DNA of 64,000 nt from an uncultured Ralstonia sp. (GCA_966433195.1 CBJMVH010000021.1:1259-65258); one strand, 5' to 3'; shown: positions 2,210-49,700, numbered from the stretch's first letter. The notes: generated from the sequence alone by a model not told the origin. Program-made: numbers and translations.

Positions 2210-3112
2210 TCAGTCCTTCCCTTCGTTTTTGAGCGCCAGCGCGCTCTGGTATAGCGCGTCAACGGGCGCGCCCGTAATCGCCCCGGCCAGTTTCGCCGCT
2301 CGCTTGGCAGGCAACTCGGCCAACAGCAGGCGCAGCACTTGGTCCGCCGCCATGGCTGTTGGTGCCGCATCGTGCGTGCCTGCGCCTTCCACCACCAGCA
2401 CGAATTCACCTTTGGCGTGGGTTGCATCAGCCGCCAACCAGGCCGGCGCATCGGCGGCGAGCAACACGACAATCTGCTCGAACAGCTTGGTCAACTCGCG
2501 GCCGATCAGGATGCGCCGCATCGGCAGGTGCTCGGCCAGCGCGGCGAGCGTGGCATCAATGCGGTGCGGCGCTTCGTACAACACCCATGCCGGCCCATGC
2601 GCTGCCCACTGGCGGATGGCCGTATCGCGCGCACCCGCTTTGGTGGGCAGAAAGCCGACGAAGGTGAATTGCCCATCCGACGTATCAAGCAGCTCGCCGG
2701 CAGCGCTGAGCGCCGTCACCACCGCGCTCGCACCCGGTAGCGGGATCACACGATGGCCGGCCGCACGCACCGCCTCGACGATGCGCGCCCCCGGGTCCGA
2801 CACCCCCGGCGTGCCGGCATCCGACGCATAAGCGATGCGCGCGCCCTGCGCCAGGCGCGCGACGATGCGCGCGGCGGCTTCGCGTTCGTTGTGTTCGTGC
2901 GCTGCCAGCATCGGCTTGTGCAGGCCCAGGCGGCCCAGCAACTGCCCGGTGTTGCGCGTGTCCTCGCAAGCCACCGCGTCCACCAGGCCGAGCACGTGGC
3001 GCGCGCGCAGGGACACGTCGGCGGCGTTCCCGATGGGGGTGGCCACCACATATAATGCGCCGGCGGGATAGTGCTGGTCGTGCGCCAGCAGGGTCCAGTC
3101 AGGATCACTCAC
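2210..3112 (-). CDS. rsmI: 16S rRNA (C1402-2'-O)-methyltransferase
   Basis: LYVVATPIGN, ACEDTR, SDAGTPGVSDPG, YEAPHR, RELTKLFE motifs; divergent from yraN. Confidence 0.95.
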   Translation of the reverse strand: MSDPDWTLLAHDQHYPAGALYVVATPIGNAADVSLRARHVLGLVDAVACEDTRNTGQLLGRLGLHKPMLAAHEHNEREAAARIVARLAQGARIAYASDAGTPGVSDPGARIVEAVRAAGHRVIPLPGASAVVTALSAAGELLDTSDGQFTFVGFLPTKAGARDTAIRQWAAHGPAWVLYEAPHRIDATLAALAEHLPMRRILIGRELTKLFEQIVVLLAADAPAWLAADATHAKGEFVLVVEGAGTHDAAPTAMAADQVLRLLLAELPAKRAAKLAGAITGAPVDALYQSALALKNEGKD

Positions 3113-3147
3113 GAGAACTTCTCTTAGTCAGTCGGTTCAAACCGCCA

Positions 3148-3540
3148 ATGCACGCGCCGCAGCCCGTACCTTCACAGCCCACCACCGCCATCACCGGAGA
3201 CGCCGGTGAAGACCGCGCGCTGCGTTATCTGCAAGCACGTGGGTTAGGCTTGGTCACCCGCAATTATCGCTGCAAGGGCGGCGAGATCGATCTGGTGATG
3301 CGCGATGCGGCCGGCGCGCTGGTATTCGTGGAAGTGCGCGCACGCGTGGCACGCTCCTCGCAACGCTTTGGCGGTGCCGCTGCCAGCGTCACGCCCGCCA
3401 AGCAGCGCCGCCTGATTGCCGCGGCCGAAGATTTTCTCGCACGGCAGGCCGACGATGTGCCCGCCTGCCGTTTTGACGTCATCGCCATTGACGGCAACCG
3501 CATCGAATGGATGCGCGATGCCTTTGGCGCGGATGCATGA
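3148..3540 (+). CDS. yraN: YraN/UPF0102 family protein
   Basis: NYRCKGGEIDLVM...VFVEVRAR...CRFDVIAI. Confidence 0.92.
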   Translation: MHAPQPVPSQPTTAITGDAGEDRALRYLQARGLGLVTRNYRCKGGEIDLVMRDAAGALVFVEVRARVARSSQRFGGAAASVTPAKQRRLIAAAEDFLARQADDVPACRFDVIAIDGNRIEWMRDAFGADA

Positions 3541-3580
3541 ACCTCGCTCTTCTCTCTTCCGGACTTCATTCAAGGACAGC

Positions 3581-4399
3581 ATGAAACTCTCGTCGCCACC
3601 GTCTGCCCGCCTCCACCACACGATCAAGCGTACCGTTGTGCTGGCCGCCCTGGCTGGCATCACCGCCACGCAGTTGACCGCGTGCTTCCCGCTGTTTGCC
3701 GGCGCCGTGGCCGGTGGCGTAGCACTGGCCACCGACCGCCGCCCGACCGCCACGCAGACCATCGACCGCGGCTTGCAGATGGAAGCCGAAAACACGCTGA
3801 TCTCGCGCTACGACGGTCGCGCGCACGTCAACGTGACGGTCTACAACCGCAAGGTGCTACTCACCGGCGAGGCCGGCACCGAGCAGACCAAGCAGGAGAT
3901 CGGCCAGTACGCGCAAAAGCTGCAGAACGCGCGTGAGGTCGTCAACGAGATCGTGGTGACGCCGATGTCGAGCACGTTCGGCTCGCGCACCAACGACACC
4001 TACATCACCACCAAGGTGAAGAGCGTGCTGGCCGGCACGGAAGGCGTGCCCTGGAACTCCATCAAGGTGACGACCGAAGCGCAGACCGTCTTCCTGATGG
4101 GCGTGGTGACCGAAGCCGAAGGCAACAAGGCCACCGAAGCGGTGCGCACCGTGGGCGGCGTGAACAAGGTGGTGAAGGTGTTCGACTACGTGAGCGAAGA
4201 CGAGCGCAAGCGCCTGGACACCAATGCCACGTCGACCAACCCTTCGACGACGCCCGATGCATCGCAAGGCACGCCGGCACCGGTACAAGGTACGCCGACG
4301 GCCACCCAGGCACCGGCACCCGTGACGTCGGCATCGCCGGGGGTGACAGTGTCGCCGACTACCTCGCCGGCGCTGCCGCCGGGCAAGCAGTTGCCGTAA
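3581..4399 (+). CDS. BON-domain lipoprotein (YraP/DolP-like) with Pro/Thr/Ala-rich C-terminal tail
   Basis: Lipobox-like QLTAC; two BON-like repeats (VLLTGEA; DTYITTKVKS...VFLMGVV). Confidence 0.88.
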   Translation: MKLSSPPSARLHHTIKRTVVLAALAGITATQLTACFPLFAGAVAGGVALATDRRPTATQTIDRGLQMEAENTLISRYDGRAHVNVTVYNRKVLLTGEAGTEQTKQEIGQYAQKLQNAREVVNEIVVTPMSSTFGSRTNDTYITTKVKSVLAGTEGVPWNSIKVTTEAQTVFLMGVVTEAEGNKATEAVRTVGGVNKVVKVFDYVSEDERKRLDTNATSTNPSTTPDASQGTPAPVQGTPTATQAPAPVTSASPGVTVSPTTSPALPPGKQLP

Positions 4400-4427
4400 A
4401 GCACGTCGGCTCTTTCGCCGCACAAAG

Positions 4428-4453
4428 AACGCAGCCACCGCGCTGCGTTTTTT
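4428..4453 (+). terminator. Rho-independent terminator after BON gene
   Basis: aacgcagc-caccgc-gctgcgtt followed by T run. Confidence 0.7.
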
Positions 4454-4508
4454 GTTGCCCGCGCGGGCGTGGTAGCGTATGCCGCTCTCACGACTTCGCA
4501 GCCCCCCA

Positions 4509-4853
4509 ATGCCCGTCGTTCATCGTTGCCTTGCCGCAGCCTGGCCTGCGGTGTTCCTGCTCGGCGTCGCCCATGCGGCCGAGGCGCCGCCCTCCAATGC
4601 ACAAGCCCGCACCTGGGCCGCATCCTGCGCGAGCTGCCATCACGCAGATACGGCGCCCGGGGCCAAGCTGGCCGCGCAGACCTTGCCATCGCTCGCCGGC
4701 CGCTCGCAGGCCGAGCTGATCGACGCGCTGCAGGCGTTTCGCAACGGCACGCGTCCCTCCACGGTGATGGGCCAGATCGCACGCGGTTACGACGATGCGC
4801 AGATCGCGGCCATTGCCGGCTGGTTGTCGCGCCAACAGCAGGTGGCCCCATGA
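4509..4853 (+). CDS. Monoheme c-type cytochrome (FccA-like subunit of flavocytochrome c)
   Basis: Signal peptide, CASCH heme motif, TVMGQIARG axial Met; overlaps next gene (ATGA). Start codon choice uncertain. Confidence 0.85.
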   Translation: MPVVHRCLAAAWPAVFLLGVAHAAEAPPSNAQARTWAASCASCHHADTAPGAKLAAQTLPSLAGRSQAELIDALQAFRNGTRPSTVMGQIARGYDDAQIAAIAGWLSRQQQVAP

Positions 4854-10646: not shown

Positions 10647-11159
10647 ATGCAAGCCATTCGACGGTTCTTGATGTGGACAGCAGCGGCGACGGCGCTTGCT
10701 GCTGGCACCGCGCAGGCCGTCGAAGTCGGCGATGTGGTGACGATGCCCGACGTGCAACTGCTCGACGGCACGCGTGTGCCGGGCAGTGCATGGCGTGGGC
10801 ATCCGGTCATCATCGCCACCTGGGCATCGTGGTGCCCGTTCTGCGCATTGCAGAACCCGCGCTTGCAAAAGCTCTACGACGCCACGCGCGGCACTGATCT
10901 GCGTATCCTCACCATCAGCATCGACGCCAACCCGCAGCTCGCCAAGGATTACGTCGCCAAGCGTGGCTTCACCTTTCCGGTGACGATGGAATCCGACGCG
11001 CTGTGCGCCGCCACCGGCCCGCGCAAGGGCTTGCCTGAGTTGCTCTTGCTCGACGCCAACGGCCGCGTGGTCCGCAAGGAAGTCGGCGAGATGCTCGAAG
11101 ACGACGTGGCCGACCTCGCGCCTCATTACGCCCACCCGGCCCACAGCCCCAAACAATGA
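10647..11159 (+). CDS. TlpA-like periplasmic thioredoxin
   Basis: Signal peptide; WASWCPFC redox motif. Confidence 0.85.
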   Translation: MQAIRRFLMWTAAATALAAGTAQAVEVGDVVTMPDVQLLDGTRVPGSAWRGHPVIIATWASWCPFCALQNPRLQKLYDATRGTDLRILTISIDANPQLAKDYVAKRGFTFPVTMESDALCAATGPRKGLPELLLLDANGRVVRKEVGEMLEDDVADLAPHYAHPAHSPKQ

Positions 11160-12868
11160 ACCGCCGCGAATTCGTTCAAGCCCTGGCGATTGCCGCAGCC
11201 GCCGGCCTGCGCCTGACCGACGCCCACGCTGACACGGTGGCCTACGACGTGCCGCGCTTCGGCAACGTCCACCTGCTGCACTTCACCGACTGTCACGCGC
11301 AACTGCTGCCCATCGAATACCGCGAGCCCAGCGTCAACCTGGGCGTGGCGCAGTGGGCGGGGCAGCCGCCGCATCTGGTGGGGCATGCGTTGCTCGAGCG
11401 CTATGGCATCGCGCCCGGTTCGCGCTCCGCGCACGCTTTCACCTCGCTCGATTTCACCGAAGCCGCGCGCCGCTACGGCCGCATGGGCGGCTTCGCGCAT
11501 CTGGCTACGCTCATCAAGCGCCTGCGCGCCACGCGCCCGAATGCGTTGCTGCTCGACGGCGGCGATACGTGGCAGGGCTCAGCGACATCCCTGTGGACAA
11601 ATGGGCAGGACATGGTCGACGCAGCCCTCGCGCTCGGCGTCGACGTCATGACCCCGCACTGGGAGATGACCTACGGCGCAGACCGCGTGCGCCACGTGGT
11701 CGATCACGACTTCAAGAACAAAGTCGCCTTCGTCGCGCAGAACATCCAGACCGCCGACTTTGGCGATCCGGTGTTTGACCCCTACGTGCTGCGCGAGCTG
11801 AATGGCGTGCCGGTCGCCATCATCGGTCAGGCGTTTCCGTACACGCCCGTCGCGCACCCGGCAGACTTCACGCCCGACTGGACGTTCGGCATCCAGGAAG
11901 AGCGGCTGCAGAAGATGATCGACGAGGCGCGCGGCAAGGGCGCCAAGGTGGTCGTGCTGCTGTCGCATAACGGCATGGATGTGGACCTGAAGCTCGCCTC
12001 GCGCGTGCGTGGGTTGGATGTGGTCCTCGGCGGCCATACGCACGATGCGGTGCCGGCGCCAGTGAAGGTCAGCAACTCGGGCGGCGTAACGCTCGTCACC
12101 AACGCGGGCGCCAACGGCAAGTTCGTCGGCGTGCTTGATCTGGACGTGCGCGGCGGTGCCGTGCGCGACATCCGCTACACGCTGTTGCCCGTGTTTGCTG
12201 ATCTGCTGCCGCCTGATCCGGCCATGTCGGCGCTCATCGAGCGCGTGCGGGCGCCGTACAAGGACAAGCTCGGCGAGACGCTCGCCACCAACCGCGGCCT
12301 GCTGTACCGGCGCGGCAACTTCAACGGCACGTTCGATCAGCTCATCGTCGATGGCCTGATGCAGGCGCAGAGCGCGGAGATCGCCTTCTCGCCCGGCTTC
12401 CGCTGGGGCACCACGCTGCTGCCCGGCGAGGCCGTCACGATGGAAGCGCTGATGGCCCAGACTGCCATCACGTACCCCGCCACCACGCTCACCGAGATGA
12501 CCGGCTCCACCATCAAAACCGTGCTCGAAGACGTGGCCGACAACCTGTTCAATCCCGACCCGTACTACCAGCAGGGTGGCGACATGGTGCGCACCGGCGG
12601 TCTGCGCTACACCATCGACCCGCTGAAACCGATGGGCCAGCGCATCACCGACATGCGCCTTGGAGACAAGCCGATCGACGCCGATCGACGCTACAAGGTG
12701 GCCGGCTGGGCGGCCGTATCGCCCGACGTGCGCAAGGCCGGCGGACGTCCCGTGTGGGACGTGCTGGCCGACTGGCTGCGCGACCAGCGCGAAGTGACGG
12801 CCCGTCCGCTGAATACGCCGCGCATCGTCGGCATGGACGGCAATCCGGGCATGGAGAACGCGGGTTGA
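11156..12868 (+). CDS. soxB: Thiosulfohydrolase SoxB
   Basis: Tat signal; HFTDCHAQL, DGGDTWQG, LSHNG, GGHTHD metallophosphoesterase motifs; YYQQGGDMVR. Confidence 0.97.
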   Translation: MNRREFVQALAIAAAAGLRLTDAHADTVAYDVPRFGNVHLLHFTDCHAQLLPIEYREPSVNLGVAQWAGQPPHLVGHALLERYGIAPGSRSAHAFTSLDFTEAARRYGRMGGFAHLATLIKRLRATRPNALLLDGGDTWQGSATSLWTNGQDMVDAALALGVDVMTPHWEMTYGADRVRHVVDHDFKNKVAFVAQNIQTADFGDPVFDPYVLRELNGVPVAIIGQAFPYTPVAHPADFTPDWTFGIQEERLQKMIDEARGKGAKVVVLLSHNGMDVDLKLASRVRGLDVVLGGHTHDAVPAPVKVSNSGGVTLVTNAGANGKFVGVLDLDVRGGAVRDIRYTLLPVFADLLPPDPAMSALIERVRAPYKDKLGETLATNRGLLYRRGNFNGTFDQLIVDGLMQAQSAEIAFSPGFRWGTTLLPGEAVTMEALMAQTAITYPATTLTEMTGSTIKTVLEDVADNLFNPDPYYQQGGDMVRTGGLRYTIDPLKPMGQRITDMRLGDKPIDADRRYKVAGWAAVSPDVRKAGGRPVWDVLADWLRDQREVTARPLNTPRIVGMDGNPGMENAG

Positions 12869-29872: not shown

Positions 29873-29943
29873 TCATTTCCATGTGGCTCGCGCCGGGACA
29901 CGTTCCCCGCGAGCCGTTTCCATTTGGGAACCCGAAACAGAAC

Positions 29944-31347
29944 ATGCTCAACGTCGAGTACCGCAAGGTCACGGCGCTGATTCCCTACGCCCGCAATCCC
30001 CGGACCCACAGCGAGGAGCAGGTGGCCCGGATCGCCGCCAGCATCGTCGAGTACGGCTGGACCAACCCAATCCTGGTCGACGGCGAGAATGGCGTGATTG
30101 CGGGCCACGGGCGCTTGGCCGCCGCGCGCAAGCTTGGCATGGAGGTTGTGCCGGTGATCGAACTGGCCCACCTGTCGCCAACACAAAAGCGCGCGTTGAT
30201 CCTGGCAGACAACCGCATCGCACTTGATGCGGGCTGGGATGAGGAACTGCTGGCGCTGGAGTTTGCGGAACTGGTCGATGCCGGCTACGACCTGGCGCTG
30301 ACCGGGTTCGATGAGGCAGAGATCGACGCCCTGCTGGCTGAAGACGTGAGCGACGACGAGGATGCCGCCTGCTCAGAAGAAAGCGAGCCCGATGCAGCGG
30401 ACGACGTGCCTGCCGCATCGGCAGTGCCGGTGTCCCGTCCTGGCGACGTATGGGCGCTCGGTGGGCACCGCCTCATTTGCGGCGATGCCACCGATGCCAG
30501 CGTCATTGACGCCTTAATGGCTGGTCAGCAAGCCGACCTGTGCTTCACGTCGCCGCCCTACGCCAACCAGCGCAACTACACCACAGGCGGCATCGCCGAT
30601 TGGGACGTATTGATGCGCGGCGTGTTCGGCAATGTGCCGATGGCGGCCGACGGCCAGATTCTCGTCAATCTCGGGTTGGTCCACCGCGACAGCGAGGTCG
30701 TGCCGTATTGGGATGCATGGCTTGGCTGGATGCGCACGCAAGGTTGGCGGCGCTTCGGCTGGTACGTCTGGGACCAGGGGCCGGGCATGCCGGGCGACTG
30801 GCAAGGCCGTTTAGCGCCTTCCTTCGAATTCGTCTTCCACTTCAACCGGGAGGCCCGCCGACCGAACAAAACCGTGCCGTGCAAGTACGCCGGCCAGGAC
30901 GAACACTTGCGCGCTGACGGCACGTCGACCTCGATGCGCGGCAAGGACGGCGCCGTCGGGGGCTGGACGCACAAGGGGCGGGTGACGCAGGACACCCGGA
31001 TTCCTGACTCGGTGATCCGCGTGATGCGGCACAAGGGCAAGATCGGCCGCGACATCGACCACCCGGCTGTGTTCCCCGTTGCGCTGCCGGCATTCCTGAT
31101 CGAGGCGTACTCGGATGCCGGCGACATCGTGTTCGAGCCCTTCGGCGGCAGCGGCACCACCATGCTGGCCGCCCAGCGCACCGGTCGCCTGTGCCGCAGC
31201 GTCGAGATCGCGCCTGAATACGTCGACGTCGCCATCAAGCGTTTCGAGCAGAACTTCCCCGAGGTGCCGGTGACGCTGTGCTCGACCGGACAGACCTTCG
31301 CGGCTGTTGCGGCCGAACGCCTGGCGGGCGTGGAGGTGACGCAATGA
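29944..31347 (+). CDS. ParB-N domain + N4/N6 DNA methyltransferase (beta class)
   Basis: PYARNPRTHS...IAGHGR; TSPPY motif IV before EPFGGSGTT motif I; HPAVFP. Confidence 0.92.
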   Translation: MLNVEYRKVTALIPYARNPRTHSEEQVARIAASIVEYGWTNPILVDGENGVIAGHGRLAAARKLGMEVVPVIELAHLSPTQKRALILADNRIALDAGWDEELLALEFAELVDAGYDLALTGFDEAEIDALLAEDVSDDEDAACSEESEPDAADDVPAASAVPVSRPGDVWALGGHRLICGDATDASVIDALMAGQQADLCFTSPPYANQRNYTTGGIADWDVLMRGVFGNVPMAADGQILVNLGLVHRDSEVVPYWDAWLGWMRTQGWRRFGWYVWDQGPGMPGDWQGRLAPSFEFVFHFNREARRPNKTVPCKYAGQDEHLRADGTSTSMRGKDGAVGGWTHKGRVTQDTRIPDSVIRVMRHKGKIGRDIDHPAVFPVALPAFLIEAYSDAGDIVFEPFGGSGTTMLAAQRTGRLCRSVEIAPEYVDVAIKRFEQNFPEVPVTLCSTGQTFAAVAAERLAGVEVTQ

Positions 31348-32591
31348 CGGCGTCGTGGCTTGCGGGCAGGATCGAGCACTGGCCGATTCAGCGGCTGGTG
31401 CCCTACGCGGCAAACGCCCGGACGCATTCCGACGAACAGGTCGCGCAGATTGCCGCCAGCATGGTGGAGTTTGGATTCACGAACCCCATCCTGGCGGGCG
31501 CCGACGGCATCATTGTCGCCGGCCACGGGCGGCTCGCTGCTGCCACGAAGTTGGGGCTGGCGACGGTGCCGGTGGTCGTGCTCGACCACCTGAGCCCCAC
31601 GCAACGGCGCGCCCTGGTGATCGCGGACAATCGCATCGCCGAGAACGCCGGCTGGGACGAAGCGGTGCTGCGCGCCGAACTGGCAGCGCTCGATGCGGCG
31701 GACTTCGATCTGGCGCTGACAGGCTTCGATGCCGATGCACTGGCCGATCTGATGGCTGGTGACGAAGCCGATGGGGACGATCAGGGAAAGGATGACACGG
31801 AGCTGCCGGCGCCCGAGGTGCCGGTGTCCCGGCCGGGTGACGTATGGGTGTTGGGCGAGCACCGGCTGCTCTGCGGCGATGCCACCGTGGCCGAGAGCTA
31901 CGAGCGGCTGCTGCAGGGTGAGCTAGCGGACATGGTCTTCACGGACCCGCCGTACAACGTGAACTACGCCAACACGGCCAAGGACCGGCAGCGCGGTAGG
32001 AGCCGCGCCATCCTGAACGACAACCTGGGGGGCGGCTTCTACGATTTCCTGCTGGCGGCGCTCACGCCGATGGTTGCCAACTGCCGAGGGGCCCTCTACG
32101 TGGCGATGTCCTCCAGCGAACTGGACGTGCTGCAGGCAGCGTTCCGCGAGGCCGGCGGCCACTGGTCCACGTTCATCATCTGGGCCAAGAACACCTTCAC
32201 GCTGGGACGCGCGGACTACCAGCGGCAATACGAGCCGATCCTGTACGGCTGGCCCGAGGGTGCGCAGCGTCACTGGTGCGGTGCTCGCGACCAGGGGGAC
32301 GTTTGGCAGATCAAGAAGCCGGCCCGGAACGACCTGCACCCGACAATGAAGCCGGTGGAATTGGTCGAGCGTGCCATTCGCAATTCGAGCCGTCCTGGTG
32401 ACGTGGTGCTCGATGCGTTCGGTGGTTCGGGGACGACACTGATTGCGGCGCAGAAGACGGGACGTGTGGCGCGGCTGATCGAACTCGATCCCAAGTATGT
32501 CGACGTCATCGTGCGTCGCTGGCAGGAATGGACGGGCGAGCGGGCTACGCGTGAGAGTGACGGTGCCGGTTTCGTTTCAACCGCAACGTGA
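31344..32591 (+). CDS. Second ParB-N domain + DNA methyltransferase (beta class)
   Basis: PYAANARTHS...AGHGR; TDPPY; HPTMKP; DAFGGSGTT. Confidence 0.92.
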   Translation: MTASWLAGRIEHWPIQRLVPYAANARTHSDEQVAQIAASMVEFGFTNPILAGADGIIVAGHGRLAAATKLGLATVPVVVLDHLSPTQRRALVIADNRIAENAGWDEAVLRAELAALDAADFDLALTGFDADALADLMAGDEADGDDQGKDDTELPAPEVPVSRPGDVWVLGEHRLLCGDATVAESYERLLQGELADMVFTDPPYNVNYANTAKDRQRGRSRAILNDNLGGGFYDFLLAALTPMVANCRGALYVAMSSSELDVLQAAFREAGGHWSTFIIWAKNTFTLGRADYQRQYEPILYGWPEGAQRHWCGARDQGDVWQIKKPARNDLHPTMKPVELVERAIRNSSRPGDVVLDAFGGSGTTLIAAQKTGRVARLIELDPKYVDVIVRRWQEWTGERATRESDGAGFVSTAT

Positions 32592-40942: not shown

Positions 40943-41947
40943 ATGCAGAATCCCTTCACCAATCCTGCCTTCTCGATGGCGTCGATGACGGCGGCCATCA
41001 ACCTGATCCCGAACCGGTACGGGAAGCTTGAGGCGATGAACCTCTTTGCGCCCAAGCCGGTGCGCATGCGCCAGATCATTGTGGAGCAGCGCGAGGGCGT
41101 GCTCACCCTGTTGCCCACGTTGCCTCCGGGCTCGCCCGGCACGGTCGGCACCCGAGGCCGGCGCAACGTACGCTCGTTCGTCATCCCTCACATCCCACAC
41201 GATGACGTGGTGCTGCCCGAAGCCGTGCAGGGCTTGCGCGCGTTCGGCTCGGAGACTGAACTGGAATCCGTGTCCAACGTAATGGCCGAACGCCTGGAGA
41301 CGATGCGCAACAAGCATGCCATCACCCTGGAGCACTTGCGCATGGGGGCGCTCAAGGGCGAGATCCTCGATGCGGATGGCTCCACCCTCTACAACCTGTT
41401 CGAAGAGTTCGGCATGGAGCCGAAGGTGGTGAATTTCGAGTTGGGCGCCGACAAGACCGAAGTCCGCAACAAATGCACGGACGTGCTCGGCATGATCGAG
41501 GATTCCCTGCTCGGCGAGGTCATGACCGGCGCACACTGCCTGTGCTCTACCGACTTCTTCAAGGCACTGGTCAGCCACAAGACGGTCAAGGAAGCCTATT
41601 CGCGCTGGAAAGAAGGCGTGGTGCTGATCAACGACATGCGTCGTGGTTTCGAGTTCGGCGGCGTCACTTTCGAGGAGTACCGGGGCAAGGCGTCTGATGC
41701 GGCTGGCCGCGTGCGCAGCTTCATTGCGCCGGGCGAGGCGCATGTGTTCCCCCTGGGCACCCTCGACACCTTCGCCACCTACTTCGCGCCGGCCGACTTC
41801 AACGAGACGGTCAACACCCTAGGCCAGCCGCTGTACGCCAAGCAGGAGCCGCGCAAGTTCGAGCGGGGCACCGACGTGCACACCCAGTCCAACCCGCTGC
41901 CGATGTGCTTGCGCCCCGGCGTGCTGGTCAAGCTGACGATGGGGTGA
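40943..41947 (+). CDS. Major capsid protein (lambda gpE family)
   Basis: TLEHLRMGALKG, FAPADF, TQSNPLPMC.RP. Confidence 0.92.
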   Translation: MQNPFTNPAFSMASMTAAINLIPNRYGKLEAMNLFAPKPVRMRQIIVEQREGVLTLLPTLPPGSPGTVGTRGRRNVRSFVIPHIPHDDVVLPEAVQGLRAFGSETELESVSNVMAERLETMRNKHAITLEHLRMGALKGEILDADGSTLYNLFEEFGMEPKVVNFELGADKTEVRNKCTDVLGMIEDSLLGEVMTGAHCLCSTDFFKALVSHKTVKEAYSRWKEGVVLINDMRRGFEFGGVTFEEYRGKASDAAGRVRSFIAPGEAHVFPLGTLDTFATYFAPADFNETVNTLGQPLYAKQEPRKFERGTDVHTQSNPLPMCLRPGVLVKLTMG

Positions 41948-42826: not shown

Positions 42827-43600
42827 ATGAGTACCTATGCCTCCTTCCAAGGGCGCGTTTTTCTCGGCAAGCGAGATGCCGCGGGCGTCCCCTACGAGGT
42901 GCGCTCACCTGGCAACGTGGCCGAGCTGAAGCTGTCCCTCAAGACCGACGTGCTGGAGCACTATGAAAGTCAGACCGGCCAGCGCACGCTGGATCACCGA
43001 ATGGTCAAGCAGAAGTCGGCCACGCTCAATCTGACCATCGAGGAGTTCACCAAGGACAACCTCGCGCTGGCGCTGTACGGCAATCACGTCACCGGCACGG
43101 GCGGCGCCGTCAATGACGAGCCGGTCGGCGGCGCGACGCCGCAGGTGGGCGATCGCTACTTCCTTGCCCACCCCAAGGTGTCGAATCTGATCGTCAAGGA
43201 CAGCAGCGCCCAGCCCGTGGTGCTGGTGGCCGGCGTCGACTACACCGCCGATCTGGACTTCGGCTCGATCCAGTTCTTGCGTCTGGATGATGGCGAATCG
43301 CCGCCGCAGCCATATGTGAAGCCGTTCAAGGCGAGCTATGCCTACGGTGTGACCACCGAGATCGGCATCTTTACGCAGCCGTTGCCCGAGCGCTATCTGC
43401 GCCTGGAAGGGCTCAACACCGCCCAGGGCAACGCCCGCGTGCTGGTCGAACTGTATCGGGTGGCGTTCGATCCGCTCAAGGAGCTTTCCCTCATCTCGGA
43501 CGAATACAACAAGTTCGAGATGGAGGGCTCGCTGCTGGCCGACGCGACCAAGCCGTTTGACGCGGTGCTTGGTCAGTTCGGCCGCATCGTGCAGCTGTGA
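42827..43600 (+). CDS. Major tail tube protein
   Basis: YASFQGRVFLG...GNVAELKLSLKT...LELYRVAFDP-like pattern; precedes chaperones. Confidence 0.72.
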   Translation: MSTYASFQGRVFLGKRDAAGVPYEVRSPGNVAELKLSLKTDVLEHYESQTGQRTLDHRMVKQKSATLNLTIEEFTKDNLALALYGNHVTGTGGAVNDEPVGGATPQVGDRYFLAHPKVSNLIVKDSSAQPVVLVAGVDYTADLDFGSIQFLRLDDGESPPQPYVKPFKASYAYGVTTEIGIFTQPLPERYLRLEGLNTAQGNARVLVELYRVAFDPLKELSLISDEYNKFEMEGSLLADATKPFDAVLGQFGRIVQL

Positions 43601-43998
43601 GGCCGGCCGTGGAGGATCTGGACAAGTTGATCCCGCAGCCGGCCGACCTCGCCGTGGGCGGGGAGACACTCGCCATCCGGCCGCTCAGGGTGGGGCAACT
43701 GCCCGCCTTCCTGCGCGCGGTCTTGCCGACGCTGCAACAATTGAAGGCCCCGCAGATCGACTGGCTCTCGCTCTTCATCGAGCGTGGCGACGACCTGTTG
43801 CAGGCCGTCGCCATTGCGGTGGACAAGCCGCGTGCGTGGGTCGACACGCTCGCGGCCGACGAGGCGATCCTGTTGGCCGCCAAGGTGATCGAGGTGAACG
43901 CGGATTTTTTTACCCGGACGGTGCTGCCGAGGCTCGAAGGACTGTTCGCGCAGGTCACGCAGGCGACGGCGTCTGGTTCGACGCCATCCAGCGTTTGA
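43597..43998 (+). CDS. Tail assembly chaperone (gpG-like)
   Basis: GTG start overlapping the tail tube stop; contains the slippery heptamer at ADFF. Confidence 0.72.
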   Translation: MRPAVEDLDKLIPQPADLAVGGETLAIRPLRVGQLPAFLRAVLPTLQQLKAPQIDWLSLFIERGDDLLQAVAIAVDKPRAWVDTLAADEAILLAAKVIEVNADFFTRTVLPRLEGLFAQVTQATASGSTPSSV

Positions 43999-44216
43999 TC
44001 GATCACGGTCACCGTCTGCCTGACATCCTCGACTACACGCTGGCACAGATGCGCGACTTCGTTGCGGCTACCGTGCGATCTGATGCGACGCGCGATGCGC
44101 GACTGCTGTCGCTGATTGCCATCGGCTCTCGCGGAGATGCCCGCAATCTGGACCAGACGCTTGATCGCCTCACCAGCCAAGCCACAGACCATGCGCATGT
44201 CCGTTCGAGTCGATAG
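43905..44216 (+). CDS. -1 frameshift extension of the tail chaperone (gpGT-like)
   Basis: T TTT TTT at 43905-43911; -1 frame open to 44216 (DAIQRLIDHGHRLPDILDYTLAQ). Confidence 0.65.
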   Translation, partial: FFYPDGAAEARRTVRAGHAGDGVWFDAIQRLIDHGHRLPDILDYTLAQMRDFVAATVRSDATRDARLLSLIAIGSRGDARNLDQTLDRLTSQATDHAHVRSSR

Positions 44217-44835
44217 CGCCGCAGCGCAGGCGCAGCTGCGCCGCTGGGGCGGGGACTTCCGAGCCAAGGCCCGGAAGGCGGCGGCGCGTGCCATGGCTGG
44301 CGAGGCGGCCGAACTCAAGCAGGCGGTGCGCGACCATGTCGCTGGTCAGATGCGGGTGGTCAAGCGCTCGTTTCTCAAGGGCTTCACCGCCAAGGTACTA
44401 GATCGCGACCCGAAGCGTTTGCCGGCGCTCTATGTGGGTTCACGCATCCCGTGGTCGGGCGTGCACGAGCGAGGCGGTGTGATTGCGGGCCGGCTGCTGA
44501 TTCCGCTGTACGGGCGGATGGGCCGAAAGCGCTTCAAGGCGCAGATCGCCGAGCTGATGCGCGGAGGCAATGCGTACTTCATCAAGAACGACAAGGGGAA
44601 CGTCGTGCTAATGGCCGAGAACATCCGGGAGCACGATCGACCGCTGGCCGGTTTCAAGCGTCGCTATCGCAAGGCCGAAGGTGTCCAGCGCATCAAGCGC
44701 GGCGCGGATATTCCGATTGCGGTACTGGTGCCGCGCGTCGTACTGAGGAAGCGGTTGGACATTGAACAACTGGTGGCGCGACGCATTCCGCGTCTGGCCG
44801 CCGCCGTGGAGGCGCAGATCCGGCAGGTGAACTGA
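44191..44835 (+). CDS. Phage tail-region protein (DUF6441-like)
   Basis: Basic 214-aa ORF; IPIAVLVPRV.LRKRLD. Confidence 0.65.
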   Translation: MRMSVRVDSAAAQAQLRRWGGDFRAKARKAAARAMAGEAAELKQAVRDHVAGQMRVVKRSFLKGFTAKVLDRDPKRLPALYVGSRIPWSGVHERGGVIAGRLLIPLYGRMGRKRFKAQIAELMRGGNAYFIKNDKGNVVLMAENIREHDRPLAGFKRRYRKAEGVQRIKRGADIPIAVLVPRVVLRKRLDIEQLVARRIPRLAAAVEAQIRQVN

Positions 44836-44868
44836 CCGGTGTGCGCCTCCCGGTGGGTAATAGGGCAA

Positions 44869-45156
44869 TCAGGCGATCAGGAATTTGTCGCGGTTCTTGC
44901 CGATCCAGGCGGGTGCGCGGCCACGGCCAGTCCACGTGGCGCCGGTCTTGGGGTCGCGGTATTTGGGGGCGACCGGAGCCTTGGTGGCACGCTTGCCGCG
45001 CTTCGAGGCAAAGCCGATGTCTTCGGCGGTGAGGCCGTATTCCAGGACGATCTGGCGCACTTGCGCCGTGACCTCGGCCAGTTCCTTCTGGCGGGCGGCT
45101 TCAAGTTGTTCTTCGAGTTTTGCTTTCTGGGCGAGAAGATCTTTGTAAGTTGCCAT
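44869..45156 (-). CDS. hns: H-NS family nucleoid protein (prophage moron)
   Basis: N-terminal coiled coil; KYRDPKTGATWTGRGRAPAW DNA-binding signature. Confidence 0.93.
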   Translation of the reverse strand: MATYKDLLAQKAKLEEQLEAARQKELAEVTAQVRQIVLEYGLTAEDIGFASKRGKRATKAPVAPKYRDPKTGATWTGRGRAPAWIGKNRDKFLIA

Positions 45157-45367
45157 GAGATTTCCCCGAGAGGGTTGTTGTAGTCAGAAATAGCTAGGCT
45201 TCTGATTATTGCTGTCGCCTGCAATCAAGCAGCGACAGCGACTCGCACATTCTAAATTCGAAGCGTGGCATTTGTGCAGTTTCAGAAGTGTTTAATGTCC
45301 GATTCGTAAGGTGCGATACTTCGGCCCGTGCTGCCGTAAGTGGACGGCCGGGACGTACGCTCGCAGG

Positions 45368-46441
45368 CTACTTGGGCAAGCCGACGAACTTGAAGCCATC
45401 GCCGTTCGGTTCGAACGTAACGAGCTTGAAGCCAAGTTCCTTGCAGCGCTCCTGGCGAGCCTGATACTTCGTCGAACTAGGCAAAACAAGGAACTTACGA
45501 ACGGAGTATGACTGGAACTCCCCTTCCAGCGATCTTCCATTGAATACAAGCTGCCCGATTGCGGTGTAAATGCTTTGGCTTCCGGACGCCGGCTTTACCT
45601 CAAAGAGATCAATGGTGCGACGGCGGCGGACTATGAGGTCGGCTGCCTGACATTTCAACGCTTCCCCGCAACCGTCTAGCGCCTTGCGTAGAGCCTTCAC
45701 GACACGCCCATGCGTCCAATCCATAACGATCTCTCCTTTTCGCTTAACGACGCGAGTGCCAGCAAATTCGTCTCGATATTCAGACAAGGCCAAGTCCAAA
45801 CGCGTCTTGGCATGCGCTCCGCTTTTTCGTTTCGCATTGGGTTTGTCATCGGGGCGACGGGCAGGCATTTCCTGGTCCGCGGCAAGCGTTGCGGCGTCGC
45901 GCATTGCCCCCGCGAATCGATGAATCTTCGCAACCAGTCGATCGTCGTCCAGTGCTGCGACTACCTGCAAATCCACCTTGTACGGCTTGACGGCAGAATC
46001 GGCGGACACTGTCTTGCGCCAATTCAGGTGCCTCAACACCTCGCTCTTTTGAACTCGAGACGTTCCCCTGGTGACAATGCCCCGGTGCGCTAGGAATGCT
46101 CGCCCATTGCGATCTTTGACGAATGCTCCGCCTTTCCGACGGCTGAATCGACCATTAGGGAAATTAAACTGAAGATCGATCAAAAGCGGATCGCGACGGT
46201 CTGGAACGTGACGCCCAACGAGCGTTATGAAGTCCCCTGTCTTCTTGTTTTTTCCACTATAAACCCAAAGCTCCTCGCGAACTGTCGCGGGTGCGAGGCG
46301 CACCTTGGCTTCAAAGTGACCAGCGGGGGTTCCAATGCGAAATAGCCCTCCTTCACGTGTACTTTCTTGCAGTCTTTTTTTGAGCTGCTGGTTAAAACGT
46401 GCAATTTCTGCCGGCTCTGTCACCTCACTCCAGTTCCCCAT
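45368..46441 (-). CDS. Hypothetical protein with C-terminal PD-(D/E)XK-like nuclease domain (moron)
   Basis: ADLIV...LFEVK...IYTAIGQL; lower GC; start 46441 chosen for RBS GGAG (track ORF extends to 46606). Confidence 0.7.
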   Translation of the reverse strand: MGNWSEVTEPAEIARFNQQLKKRLQESTREGGLFRIGTPAGHFEAKVRLAPATVREELWVYSGKNKKTGDFITLVGRHVPDRRDPLLIDLQFNFPNGRFSRRKGGAFVKDRNGRAFLAHRGIVTRGTSRVQKSEVLRHLNWRKTVSADSAVKPYKVDLQVVAALDDDRLVAKIHRFAGAMRDAATLAADQEMPARRPDDKPNAKRKSGAHAKTRLDLALSEYRDEFAGTRVVKRKGEIVMDWTHGRVVKALRKALDGCGEALKCQAADLIVRRRRTIDLFEVKPASGSQSIYTAIGQLVFNGRSLEGEFQSYSVRKFLVLPSSTKYQARQERCKELGFKLVTFEPNGDGFKFVGLPK

Positions 46442-46758
46442 GGTCTTCTCTCCTAACGTTTTCGCGACATTGTAATTGTCCATAGTGACTTCGTTCCGGT
46501 TCCTGCCTCCTGTGAATGCGATAGCTGCCGAGGCCTTCTGTTTATAGATTTCATGGGGTTGCTTCCGGAGTAGTGAAAGGAAACTATGTCGCGTGTATCT
46601 CATCACAATGCTGAACGTGCTCTCGTCCCAGTAGGCCGCCCTTTGATTTCAGGGCTAGCGCTTGGAGATTTGTTTGGCACGGGCAATCAGTGCCGCCATT
46701 TCTTCTAGATCCAGCGCGCTCTGGTCGGACATAAAACCTCCGGAACAGATCTTCACCA

Positions 46759-49700
46759 TTGGCAAACAATCGTATCAGTATCCTTGTCGCGCTCGACGGC
46801 GCCGACGAGGGGCTCAAACGCGCCATTACGTCGGCCGAGCGCAGCCTCGGCGAACTTGCCGCCACCGCCAAGACTGCAGGCGACAAAGCCACCACAGGTC
46901 TCGCTCAGATCAAGGCCGGCGTCGCCGCCTTCAGCGAGCAGGTCGCCACGGCCAGGACGCAGGTGCTGGCCTTCCTGTCGATCAACTGGGTCGTCGGCAA
47001 AGCCCAGGAGATCATTCAGGTCGCCGACGCCTGGAACATGATGACCGCGCGCCTGAAGCTGGCCACCGCCGGCCAGCGCGAGTTCACCGCCGCGCAGACG
47101 GCACTGTTCGACACCGCCCAGCGCGTTGGCGTACCGCTTCAGGAGACCGCCACGCTGTACGGCAAGCTGCAGCAGGCGGTGCGCATGCTGGGTGGCGAGC
47201 AGAAGGAGGCGCTCACCCTTACTGAGAGCATCTCGCAGGCGCTGCGCATCTCCGGCGCCTCGGCCAACGAGACGCAATCGGCGCTGCTGCAATTCGGTCA
47301 AGCCCTGTCGGCGGGGGTGTTGCGCGGCGAGGAGTTCAACTCGGTCGTCGACAACAGCCCGAGGCTGGCGCAGGCCCTTGCCGATGGACTCAACGTACCC
47401 ATCGGGCGCCTGCGCAAGATGGCGGAAGAGGGCAGGCTGACCGCCGATGTCGTCGTCAATGCGCTGCTGTCCCAGAAGGACAAGCTTGCCGCCGAGTACG
47501 CGCAGATGCCGGCCACCGTCAGCCAGTCCTTCGAGCGGCTGCGCAACGCCTTCGGGCAGACCATCAACCGGATCGATCAGGCCACCGGCTTGACGGCCAA
47601 GCTGACCACAGCGTTGACTTGGCTCGCGCAGAACCTCGACGTGGTGATGCAGTGGCTCAAGCGCATCGCCGAAGTCGGCCTAGCCGTGCTCGTCTACCGG
47701 CTGATCCCAGCGTTGATTACCGCATGGCAGACCGCAGGCGCTGCCGCCGTCACGGCCGCCAGTACCACTTCGGCGGCCTGGGCCACGGCCAACCTGTCGG
47801 TGTCGGCCGCCATCGCGAACGTCGGGCTGCTGCGGACCAGCTTCGCCACGCTGGGGGCCTTCTTGGTCGGCTGGGAGATCGGCACGTGGCTGTCGGAGCA
47901 GTTCGAGATCGTGCGCCGCGCCGGTATTTTCATGGTTCAGGTGCTGATCCGCTCCGTCGAGGAACTGCGTTTTCGCTGGGAGGCGTTCGCCGCCATCTTC
48001 ACCTCTGACACCATTGCTGAGGCGACCAGGCGGCACCAGGCGCGGCTCTCCGAGATGAACGCGATCTTCACGCAGATGTACGCCGACGCCAGCCGGGGCG
48101 CCGATGCGGCCAAGGGCGCCATGGATACCGCTGCCGGCGCCGCCGAGGAGATTGCCCGCCGCCTGGAGGCGGTTCGCCAGGGCACACAGGAAGCGGTCGG
48201 GCGTGGCGTTGAGGCGGTCCACACGGCGCTGGAGAAACTCAAATCCCGGCTCGGCGAGGTCGAGTCGGCGGTTTCCAAGGCCAGCCAGACCGTGAGCGAC
48301 TCGACTGCCAAGATGGCTGAGGCGTACAAGGGACTCACTTCCATCGCGGAGGGTCACCTGCAGCGTCAGATCGAGGCGGTCAAGGCGCGCTATCAGCAGG
48401 AACAGGCGGCGCTCGACGTCTCGGCCCAAGCGCAGGCCGCGCAGATTGCCAAGTCGACGCAGTTGCTGACCGATGCCTTGACCCGGCAGACCGCGCTACG
48501 TCGGCAGGCCACGACTGATACGCTGAAGCTGGTCGACGACGAGTCCCGCGCCCGCGTCGACGCCGCAGCGCGCGACGGCAAGACCGATGCCGAACGCGCG
48601 GCCAACGTCCAGCGCGTCGAGAACGAGATCCTGGCCACCCGGCGCCAGACGCTGACGCAGGCAGCATCCGAATATCGCCAGCATATCGACGCACTCAACG
48701 CCGAAGCCAACCGGCACTTGGTCGAGATCCGGCGCATCGAGGACGAGAAGCGTCAGTTGTCGATGACGACGGAAGAGCGCATCCGCGACATCCGCCGTCA
48801 GGGAATGACGGACTTCGAGGCGCTGGAGGACCGCAAGCGCCAGATCGCTGAATACCAATCGAGTGCCCGCGCTGCGCTGGCCGATGGTGAATTCGATCAG
48901 GCCCGTCAACGTGCCACCAAGGCGATGGACCTGGCCGCACAGGTGGCGAGTGCGCAATCCAGCGAAGCCAAGCGCGTGGAGGATGCACGCCGGCAGTCAG
49001 AGCAAGCGGCGTCTCAGGTTGCCGAGATCGAGGCGCAGGCGCGTGAGGCCAGGGGCCGGCAGGAATATGCGCAGGCCGAGGCGCTCACGCGCCAGGCGGA
49101 CGAACTGCGCGCGCAATCGGCACAAAGGTCGGCGGACGCCGACGCGCAGGCCCTGCAGGGCAAGGCCGCCGTCAATGAGGCCATCGGCCGCATCCGCGAG
49201 TCGGAGGCAATTCTCAACCAGACGCTGGATGCACAAGCTCAGGCGCACCAGCGTGCCGCGCAGTCGGCGGTATCGGCCCGGCAGGGTATCCAGCAGACGC
49301 TGGCCCAGACCGACAACCAGATCGACCAGATCACGGCCAAACTGCAGGAGGGCCTGAAGGTCACCATCGATGCCGACACCCAGCGTTTCGACAAGGCCAT
49401 CGCCGATCTGGACAAGGCCTTGGCCGAGCGGGAACGGCTGGTGGTCATCAAGGCCGATCTGGAGCAGGCCGAGAAGACGCTGCAGGACTATGAGCAGCGG
49501 TTGAAGGACGGCAGGACCCTGCCGGTCGATGCCGACGTGTCGAAGGCCACTGCTGCCCTGGATAGGCTCAACGCCTATGCCATGGAAACCTCGCAGCTTG
49601 AACTGAAGGTGGCCACCGAGAAGGCTCAGGCCGCGATTTCCAACGTCAGCAACCAGATCGCGGCCCTGGATCGCGTCCAGACCGAGTCGCGGCACCTGGT

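Follow-up and report, generated by a model that had tools for sequence, protein, structure and literature searches.

A predicted stand-alone PD-(D/E)XK-fold nuclease of an unnamed family, carried as single-gene cargo in the tail region of a Ralstonia-type prophage

The window, that is the whole stretch of 64,000 nucleotides that was analysed, carries a Ralstonia-type siphovirus prophage. PHROG and Pfam scans of the neighbouring genes confirmed a plus-strand late operon around the gene under study (Table 1). An earlier note, made from the sequence alone, had described a 357-aa antisense ORF between the tail chaperones and the tape measure gene. This position was borne out, the gene lying antisense between the tail genes on the chaperone side and the tape measure gene, and the ORF was translated without internal stops. 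All motifs quoted in the note were recovered: QFNFP (residues 91-95), GGAFVKD (104-110) and LAHRG (117-121) in the N-terminal part and D268, E281-V-K283 and YTAIGQL (292-298) in the C-terminal part. The lower GC content was likewise reproduced, with values of 0.51-0.57 over approximately 45000-46800, and of about 0.53-0.57 for the gene itself, against 0.62-0.72 (about 0.67) in the flanks. Two antisense genes were present between the DUF6441 gene and the tape measure gene, namely the nuclease-fold gene and, downstream of it on the same strand, a gene of the H-NS family.

Table 1. Features of the prophage region, with positions counted from the first nucleotide of the window.
Feature	Position	Strand	Remarks
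N6_N4 methyltransferase genes, two, overlapping	29881-31347 and 31278-32591	+	prophage backbone
Major head protein	40943-41947	+	PHROG/Pfam scans
Tail terminator	between major head and major tail genes	+	PHROG/Pfam scans
Major tail protein	42827-43600	+	PHROG/Pfam scans
Tail assembly chaperone	43597-43998	+	PHROG/Pfam scans
DUF6441/phrog_6367 tail-region gene	44116..44835	+	left backbone flank; PHROG/Pfam
Whole insertion relative to the empty site	44836..46758	.	in sister prophage L083 the DUF6441 gene abuts the tape measure gene
H-NS-family gene, 95 aa	44869..45156	-	antisense; PF00816 E 3.7e-14, phrog_10171
Cassette 3' end	45319..45367	-	GC-rich hairpin right after the stop codon, no U-tract
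Nuclease-fold gene (P0001)	45368..46441	-	357 aa + stop; two-domain protein, unnamed family
C-terminal PD-(D/E)XK domain, residues 242-357	45371..45718	-	Foldseek, AF2, conservation
Q297 codon	45551-45553	-	
K283 codon	45593-45595	-	
E281 codon	45599-45601	-	
D268 codon	45638-45640	-	
Linker, residues 191-241	45719..45871	-	low model confidence
N-terminal domain, residues 1-190	45872..46441	-	AF2 pLDDT 94, pTM 0.90
5' non-coding region moving with the gene	46442..46645	-	90% identity in integrase/AlpA island
Tail length tape measure protein, 1366 aa	46759..50859	+	right backbone flank

The start of the nuclease-fold gene was assigned to the ATG at 46441, which is preceded by an AGGAGAG Shine-Dalgarno sequence. 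An in-frame extension to a GTG at 46606 was without homologue support and was rejected because the aligned homologues begin at the same residue, M1. A 33-codon ORF upstream of the gene that ends in its ribosome-binding site was also discarded, its frame being broken by an indel in a 90%-identical locus. Nei-Gojobori comparison with three homologues gave a dN/dS of about 0.19 (0.18-0.19), which corresponds to purifying selection, and the gene is therefore a functional coding gene. It was single-copy in its own genome. A further ORF of 25 codons (MSDQSALDLEEMAALIARAKQISKR; 46657-46731, minus strand) with a strong GGAGG Shine-Dalgarno sequence was observed inside the insertion beside the tape measure start; it falls outside the cassette shared with locus L002.

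A word-indexed search returned 51 homologues, all labelled hypothetical. Among 1.84 billion cluster representatives at 50% identity, 631 matches were obtained at E <= 1e-3 and 192 at E <= 1e-10. Because of the 51 close and 631 distant cluster-level homologues, together with the purifying selection, the ORF is beyond chance. Neither the protein alone nor the family profile matched any family in Pfam, NCBIfam, PADLOC or the PDB sequences, and PADLOC-DB 2.0.0 contained no family at E <= 1 for the protein. The sole match in PHROGs was marginal (phrog_9843, E 0.043), no homologue was found by tblastn in 50,697 phage records, and a Foldseek search of the viral structure library with the whole model returned only uncharacterised proteins. 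Public homologues include WP_227460718.1 (Cupriavidus pauculus), CAJ4402126.1 (Burkholderia pseudomallei), WP_408412072.1 (Paraburkholderia aspalathi) and WP_138238264.1 (Mariprofundus erugo). In the host family, 5 of the 200 genomes carried the gene, and none of the other species of the genus that were scored had it. Relatives occurred in Proteobacteria, Acidobacteriota, Leptospiraceae, Clostridia and Bacteroidota, as well as in Nitrospina, KSB1, Zixibacteria and one Methanoregula archaeon. This sporadic distribution is typical of accessory genes that move horizontally. Judged from these searches, the protein belongs to a real, unnamed family outside every catalogued defence system.

An AlphaFold2 (AF2) model built on a 38-sequence alignment comprised two confident domains (residues 1-190 and 243-357) and a low-confidence linker. 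The C-terminal domain showed the order helix-strand-strand-strand-helix-strand, as in PD-(D/E)XK nucleases, with helix 244-254, strands 260-262, 269-272 and 276-282, helix 288-308 and strand 313-321. D268 opens strand 269-272, E281-V-K283 is located at the end of strand 276-282 and Q297 lies in the next helix. None of these residues varied among the 38 sequences, and in a wider set of 74, reaching down to 17% identity, each was conserved in at least 90%; the same conservation in both sets was found for H244-G245 and for the linker motif described below. In Foldseek searches of the PDB, the domain matched XisH (2inb, 2okf) and N.BspD6I with a probability of about 1.0, the R.BspD6I small subunit with 0.94 and arenavirus cap-snatching endonucleases with 0.6-0.8. 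The E-values of these nuclease matches were modest, from 4e-3 upward (4e-3 to 1e-2). Both characteristics of the PD-(D/E)XK superfamily were found, the core fold and a conserved acid on strand 2 combined with (D/E)-x-K on strand 3. The PD-(D/E)XK nuclease proposed in the earlier note thus gained support from a fold match of the predicted structure and from the conservation of the catalytic residues. At fold and motif level, the assignment of the modelled domain as a minimal PD-(D/E)XK nuclease fold is well supported; nuclease activity is predicted from the model.

The N-terminal domain was modelled separately from 74 sequences. A helix at its N-terminus is followed by an antiparallel beta-meander of considerable length, and a second, long helix forms its C-terminal end. 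Residues N93, G105, F107, H119 and G121 were at least 90% conserved in the 74 sequences and R101 and R120 were invariant in the closer set of 38, so that N93, R101, H119 and R120 form the conserved polar residues. The domain is basic, with a pI of 10.6 here and a family median of 9.3, and all three segments of the protein (N-terminal domain, linker and C-terminal domain) are basic. Foldseek identified no credible neighbour of the domain in the PDB, the best match having a probability of 0.33 and a TM score of about 0.2. Candidate assignments to lipocalin, START/SRPBCC, Atg10 or LolA-type beta-sheets, all at low probability and TM about 0.2, were dismissed as noise. The description of this part as an unrecognised domain was hence accurate: it has no family match, and no PDB fold match despite the pLDDT of 94. 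The linker holds a conserved Y-x-D-E-F-x-G motif, in which E225 and G228 were at least 90% conserved. In the metagenomic relative P0114, the same N-terminal domain is joined to a visibly different PD-(D/E)XK version (ECD...IEAKS...AVGQLLDY) that sequence search did not align to the C-terminal domain studied here. The N-terminal domain therefore acts as a module ahead of nucleases.

Among the 150 matches listed, four relatives carried N-terminal extensions. The extensions of P0127 and P0085, putatively PUA-like, had no phmmer match in the PDB. In P0185 (600 aa), an EVE domain (PF01878, E 1.1e-9) precedes the complete two-domain core, and a search with this protein identified three more of the same full architecture, P0196-P0198. 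The same search returned more than 100 proteins whose EVE-plus-linker half was 45-55% identical and which ended in HNH (PF01844), HNH_2 (PF13391) or PF13020. Predicted Type IV restriction enzymes have EVE-HNH and EVE-PD-(D/E)XK as their core architectures (PMC7641849), and for several such enzymes cleavage of modified DNA was demonstrated (PMC6765204, PMC7897488). Since the same EVE module stands ahead of either HNH or the family core, the core holds the position of the DNA-cleaving effector. The fusions would thus represent an effector swap, in which the family core takes the place that HNH has in EVE-HNH proteins. No modified-base reader (SRA, EVE, PUA, DUF3427 or winged helix) was detected in the protein of the window by Pfam or by the fold search of its N-terminal domain in the PDB, and the reader domain of Type IV enzymes was present only in the EVE-fused P0185 and P0196-P0198. 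The EVE reader ahead of the same core in this minority of relatives is the sole pointer to modification dependence, and an indirect one. The addition of a separate reader could also mean that the N-terminal domain of the core is not itself the sensor.

A stretch of 1,327 bp (45319-46645) recurred with 90% identity at a locus of an unrelated integrase/AlpA island, whose homologue is 91% identical to the protein. The shared cassette consists of the gene with 204 bp on its 5' side and 49 bp on its 3' side and contains no second gene. Within the 5' region, a 28-nt block at the ribosome-binding site was perfectly conserved. This region presumably contains the gene's own promoter; a consensus scan upstream of the gene found none. 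Independent transcription appears plausible, as the gene is antisense, has brought its 5' region along and is followed by a hairpin after the stop codon. No antitoxin or immunity gene was present in the cassette, and among approximately 185 neighbouring genes from 36 loci no recurrent partner gene of the family was found. The single-gene character claimed earlier was consequently retained, the cassette standing alone and moving as a single gene between unrelated elements.

That no methyltransferase is adjacent was also correct. None was encoded in the 1.3-kb cassette, and the methyltransferases of the prophage belong to its backbone, 13 kb away. Both were also found in Ralstonia phage YO164_3 (84% nucleotide identity) and one in Acidithiobacillus phage AcaML1 (77%), while neither these phages nor the rest of the phage collection contained a nuclease homologue. 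No methyltransferase domain was detected in the called genes of the integrase/AlpA island holding the 90%-identical cassette, and no methyltransferase family recurred among the approximately 185 neighbours at 36 homologue loci. The adjacent cognate methyltransferase of a Type II R-M system was accordingly absent, and the lack of a cognate methyltransferase agrees with Type IV systems. PF00145 and PF02086 methyltransferases were not found in the host genome; this would fit a host that tolerates an enzyme acting on m5C or on m6A of the Dam type. An enzyme targeting the marks of the N6/N4 methyltransferases of the prophage would be incompatible with those methyltransferases.

The insertion site was mapped with the DUF6441 gene and the tape measure N-terminus as anchors. 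A search of the host family with the neighbouring H-NS gene as query was uninformative because chromosomal H-NS paralogues swamped the result, which made DUF6441 the better anchor. Backbone similarity (about 82%) to Ralstonia solanacearum prophage records ended at 45192 and restarted at 46780. The slot was empty in L083, with the DUF6441 and tape measure genes abutting, and in L082 it held only an antisense 0.73-kb VapBC-like pair. H-NS and 4.1 kb with a PIN module, a transposase fragment and unknown genes were present in L008 and L084, H-NS and 3.5 kb with a YopJ-family acetyltransferase and a C5-methyltransferase-like fragment in L085, and H-NS with the nuclease-fold gene in the prophage of the window. 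The slot is a true cargo hotspot. To our knowledge, this slot with its cargo family is not among the described moron hotspots, and no description of either was found in the literature searched.

Four sister Ralstonia prophages (L008, L084, L085 and L086) conserve the H-NS gene at this spot, and L082 and L083 lack it. By this comparison it belongs to an older layer of the insertion, common to sister prophages. A phage-borne H-NS silencer beside AT-richer cargo may regulate that cargo. Several details of the sister prophages were recorded alongside. The pair in L082 (721-1382, minus strand) encodes a 137-aa PIN toxin and an 83-aa Phd/YefM-like antitoxin, and L008 and L084 carry a module 75% identical to it. 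The acetyltransferase gene of L085 (Ralstonia phage YO163_3, ON170274.1; 8769-10232, minus strand) encodes 487 aa with a PF03421 match at E 2.6e-47 and is probably an effector-like moron; the C5-methylase-like fragment in the same slot lies at 10822-11970. In the sister genomes G160 and G161 (contig C1 of each), partial copies of the 3' third of DUF6441 were located 3-5 kb downstream of the full gene; they could be scars that recombination left on either side of hotspot cargo.

The approximately 185 neighbouring genes at the 36 homologue loci were a mix of mobility and defence genes. The homologues were always found on mobile or variable DNA, comprising prophage, an ICE-like region and integrase islands. 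Two Type I R-M operons were located directly upstream of homologues in co-directional orientation and a Type III mod-res-RAMA set directly upstream of another. In one case, the start of the homologue overlapped the stop of a Res-like gene, with a Mod-like gene next and a PLD-helicase-DUF3427 gene ahead. In all, four homologues were placed within R-M operons of Type I or Type III. No integrase was found at the homologues in R-M operons in the positions examined. Another homologue adjoined a SIR2-STAND protein, and further neighbours were Septu, AriA, AbiLi, an OLD-type ATPase, PDC-S49, PD-T4-6 and NERD-UvrD. Judged by inspection and without a background rate, the homologues appear enriched in defence islands. 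A dense co-directional defence operon was observed in a marine MAG (L018, 3167-16147), with PLD-helicase-DUF3427, ResIII+RE_endonuc, the homologue, whose start overlaps the stop before it, and a 930-aa N6_N4 methyltransferase. The PLD-helicase-DUF3427 protein near a homologue has the architecture of SauUSI-type Type IV enzymes. At the ICE-like locus of B. pseudomallei (L001), a PF00145 C5-methyltransferase gene (2261-4632) split by a DUF4096 transposase fragment lies 4-6 kb upstream of the homologue, and an HNH_2-like gene of 300 aa comes after it. The split methyltransferase is suggestive and a single case.

Taken together, the reading that we favour, at slightly better than even probability, is that the gene encodes a stand-alone, methyltransferase-independent, restriction-like DNA endonuclease that serves as a defence (superinfection-exclusion) moron of the prophage. 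As we infer from sequence and model, the C-terminal PD-(D/E)XK module would cut DNA with D268, E281, K283 and Q297, possibly also with E225 and H244. The N-terminal domain, which is basic and rich in beta structure, would be the module peculiar to the family, serving to select or gate the target. The recognised target would most likely be a feature of foreign DNA, for example a base modification that the host does not have. The gene would be transcribed in the lysogen and would protect the host from other phages. Such a protein is not a classical Type IV enzyme, as the reader domain is absent, yet it may well work like one.

A different role of the same architecture would be that of a trigger-activated abortive-infection nuclease, in which the N-terminal domain responds to a protein of the phage or to an intermediate of replication or packaging, and not to a property of the bases, and indiscriminate degradation of DNA or RNA then kills or arrests the cell. 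We consider this unlikely, while giving it real weight. It is consistent with a single gene that combines an unrecognised sensor domain with a minimal nuclease, with the Abi-type neighbours AbiLi, AriA and Septu near homologues and with the toxin-antitoxin cargo in the same slot of sister prophages, and it would account for the tolerance of a nuclease without methyltransferase. However, the EVE fusions and the placement in R-M operons point to direct DNA recognition, the basic nature of all three protein segments suits DNA binding and the cassette is without an antitoxin or immunity gene. The best match among solved structures, XisH, is an excision factor of the fdxN element, and the constant location on mobile or variable DNA would also fit an XisH-like housekeeping nuclease of mobile elements, acting in recombination, excision control or addiction and not in defence. 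This role appears improbable, given that no Pfam model including that of XisH matched, no recombinase or other partner recurred beside the gene, the cassette moves alone between unrelated elements, and the gene occurs in many element types as well as in R-M operons without integrase in the positions examined.

The two methyltransferase genes of the same prophage, and the methyltransferases adjoining some homologues, raise the question of whether the protein supplies the restriction activity of an unconventional R-M pair in which the two N6_N4 methyltransferases 13 kb away protect the DNA of host and prophage. Such pairing is very unlikely because these methyltransferases are backbone genes of YO164_3, and one of them of AcaML1, phages without nuclease homologue, and because the cassette moves without a methyltransferase, its 90%-identical copy residing in an island with no methyltransferase domain among the called genes; moreover, no methyltransferase family recurs among the neighbours. 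Lowest in probability, at the margin of what we would consider, is a catalytically irrelevant or non-nuclease protein, such as a DNA-binding regulator on a PD-(D/E)XK scaffold. The modest E-values of the fold matches would allow for it, as would the little in vitro cleavage seen with some PD-(D/E)XK fusions (DUF3427 group, PMC6765204). Against it, conservation across the whole family is highest at the catalytic D, E, K and Q.

If confirmed, the restriction-like defence nuclease would represent an uncatalogued family of single-gene immune nucleases that is small enough for easy testing and that moves among phages, ICEs and defence islands of many phyla. The family is uncharacterised, one of its domains is structurally unmatched, and its layout follows a familiar sensor-plus-nuclease logic. 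No relative of the N-terminal domain exists among solved structures. The domain could uncover a novel means of distinguishing foreign DNA from self, and a new DNA-cutting reagent specific for modification or structure could be derived from it. A bolder proposal, which we hold tentatively and regard as less likely than not, is that this domain is a sensor of non-self nucleic acid that represents a new class of fold, with a recognition unlike that of SRA, EVE, PUA, DUF3427, winged-helix and iEndoIII readers, and that it founds, together with its PD-(D/E)XK partner, a widespread uncatalogued single-gene defence family of at least 631 clusters at 50% identity. The hotspot between the DUF6441 and tape measure genes, with its defence, toxin-antitoxin, H-NS and effector-like genes, would be useful for cargo mining in Ralstonia-type prophages.

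Among known systems, the VcaM4I and TspA15I group (PMC7641849, PMC6765204, PMC7897488) resembles the protein in being single-polypeptide nucleases without methyltransferase and with separate modules for recognition and cleavage, the activity being predicted for the protein of the window. The resemblance is closer in P0185 and P0196-P0198, in which an EVE module 45-55% identical to that of EVE-HNH proteins is placed on a core of the type studied here. In contrast to this group, neither EVE nor another known reader is present in the protein itself, its N-terminal domain adopts a different, unmatched fold, and its nuclease is of the PD-(D/E)XK type, whereas the characterised examples are HNH enzymes. 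XisH (2inb, 2okf) and the catalytic domain of N.BspD6I were the best matches of the C-terminal domain (probability 1.0, TM 0.49 normalised to the protein studied), and these minimal PD-(D/E)XK nucleases share the placement of D...ExK. In contrast to XisH, there is no sequence match, the XisH family profile (PF08814) included, no XisI or other recurrent partner gene, and an N-terminal domain of 190 residues plus linker is added. The END nucleases (PMC12191111) share the concept of a restriction-like, methyltransferase-less nuclease of defence islands in which a separate sensor domain decides on the substrate. Their sensor is an inactive EndoIII domain; no such domain was found in the protein by Pfam or in the model of its N-terminal domain, which is beta-rich and without Pfam hit, and no homology was detected. 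With regard to the genomic setting, Burkholderia prophage morons (PMC2920897) and the defence hotspots of P2/P4 elements (bioRxiv 10.1101/2021.01.21.427644) are the nearest parallels. As in these, the gene has been inserted between two conserved phage genes that adjoin each other at the empty site of L083, its GC content deviates from that of the flanks, the cargo of the slot differs among related prophages, and the family occurs in more than one element class, here a prophage, an integrase/AlpA island, an ICE-like region and chromosomal R-M operons.
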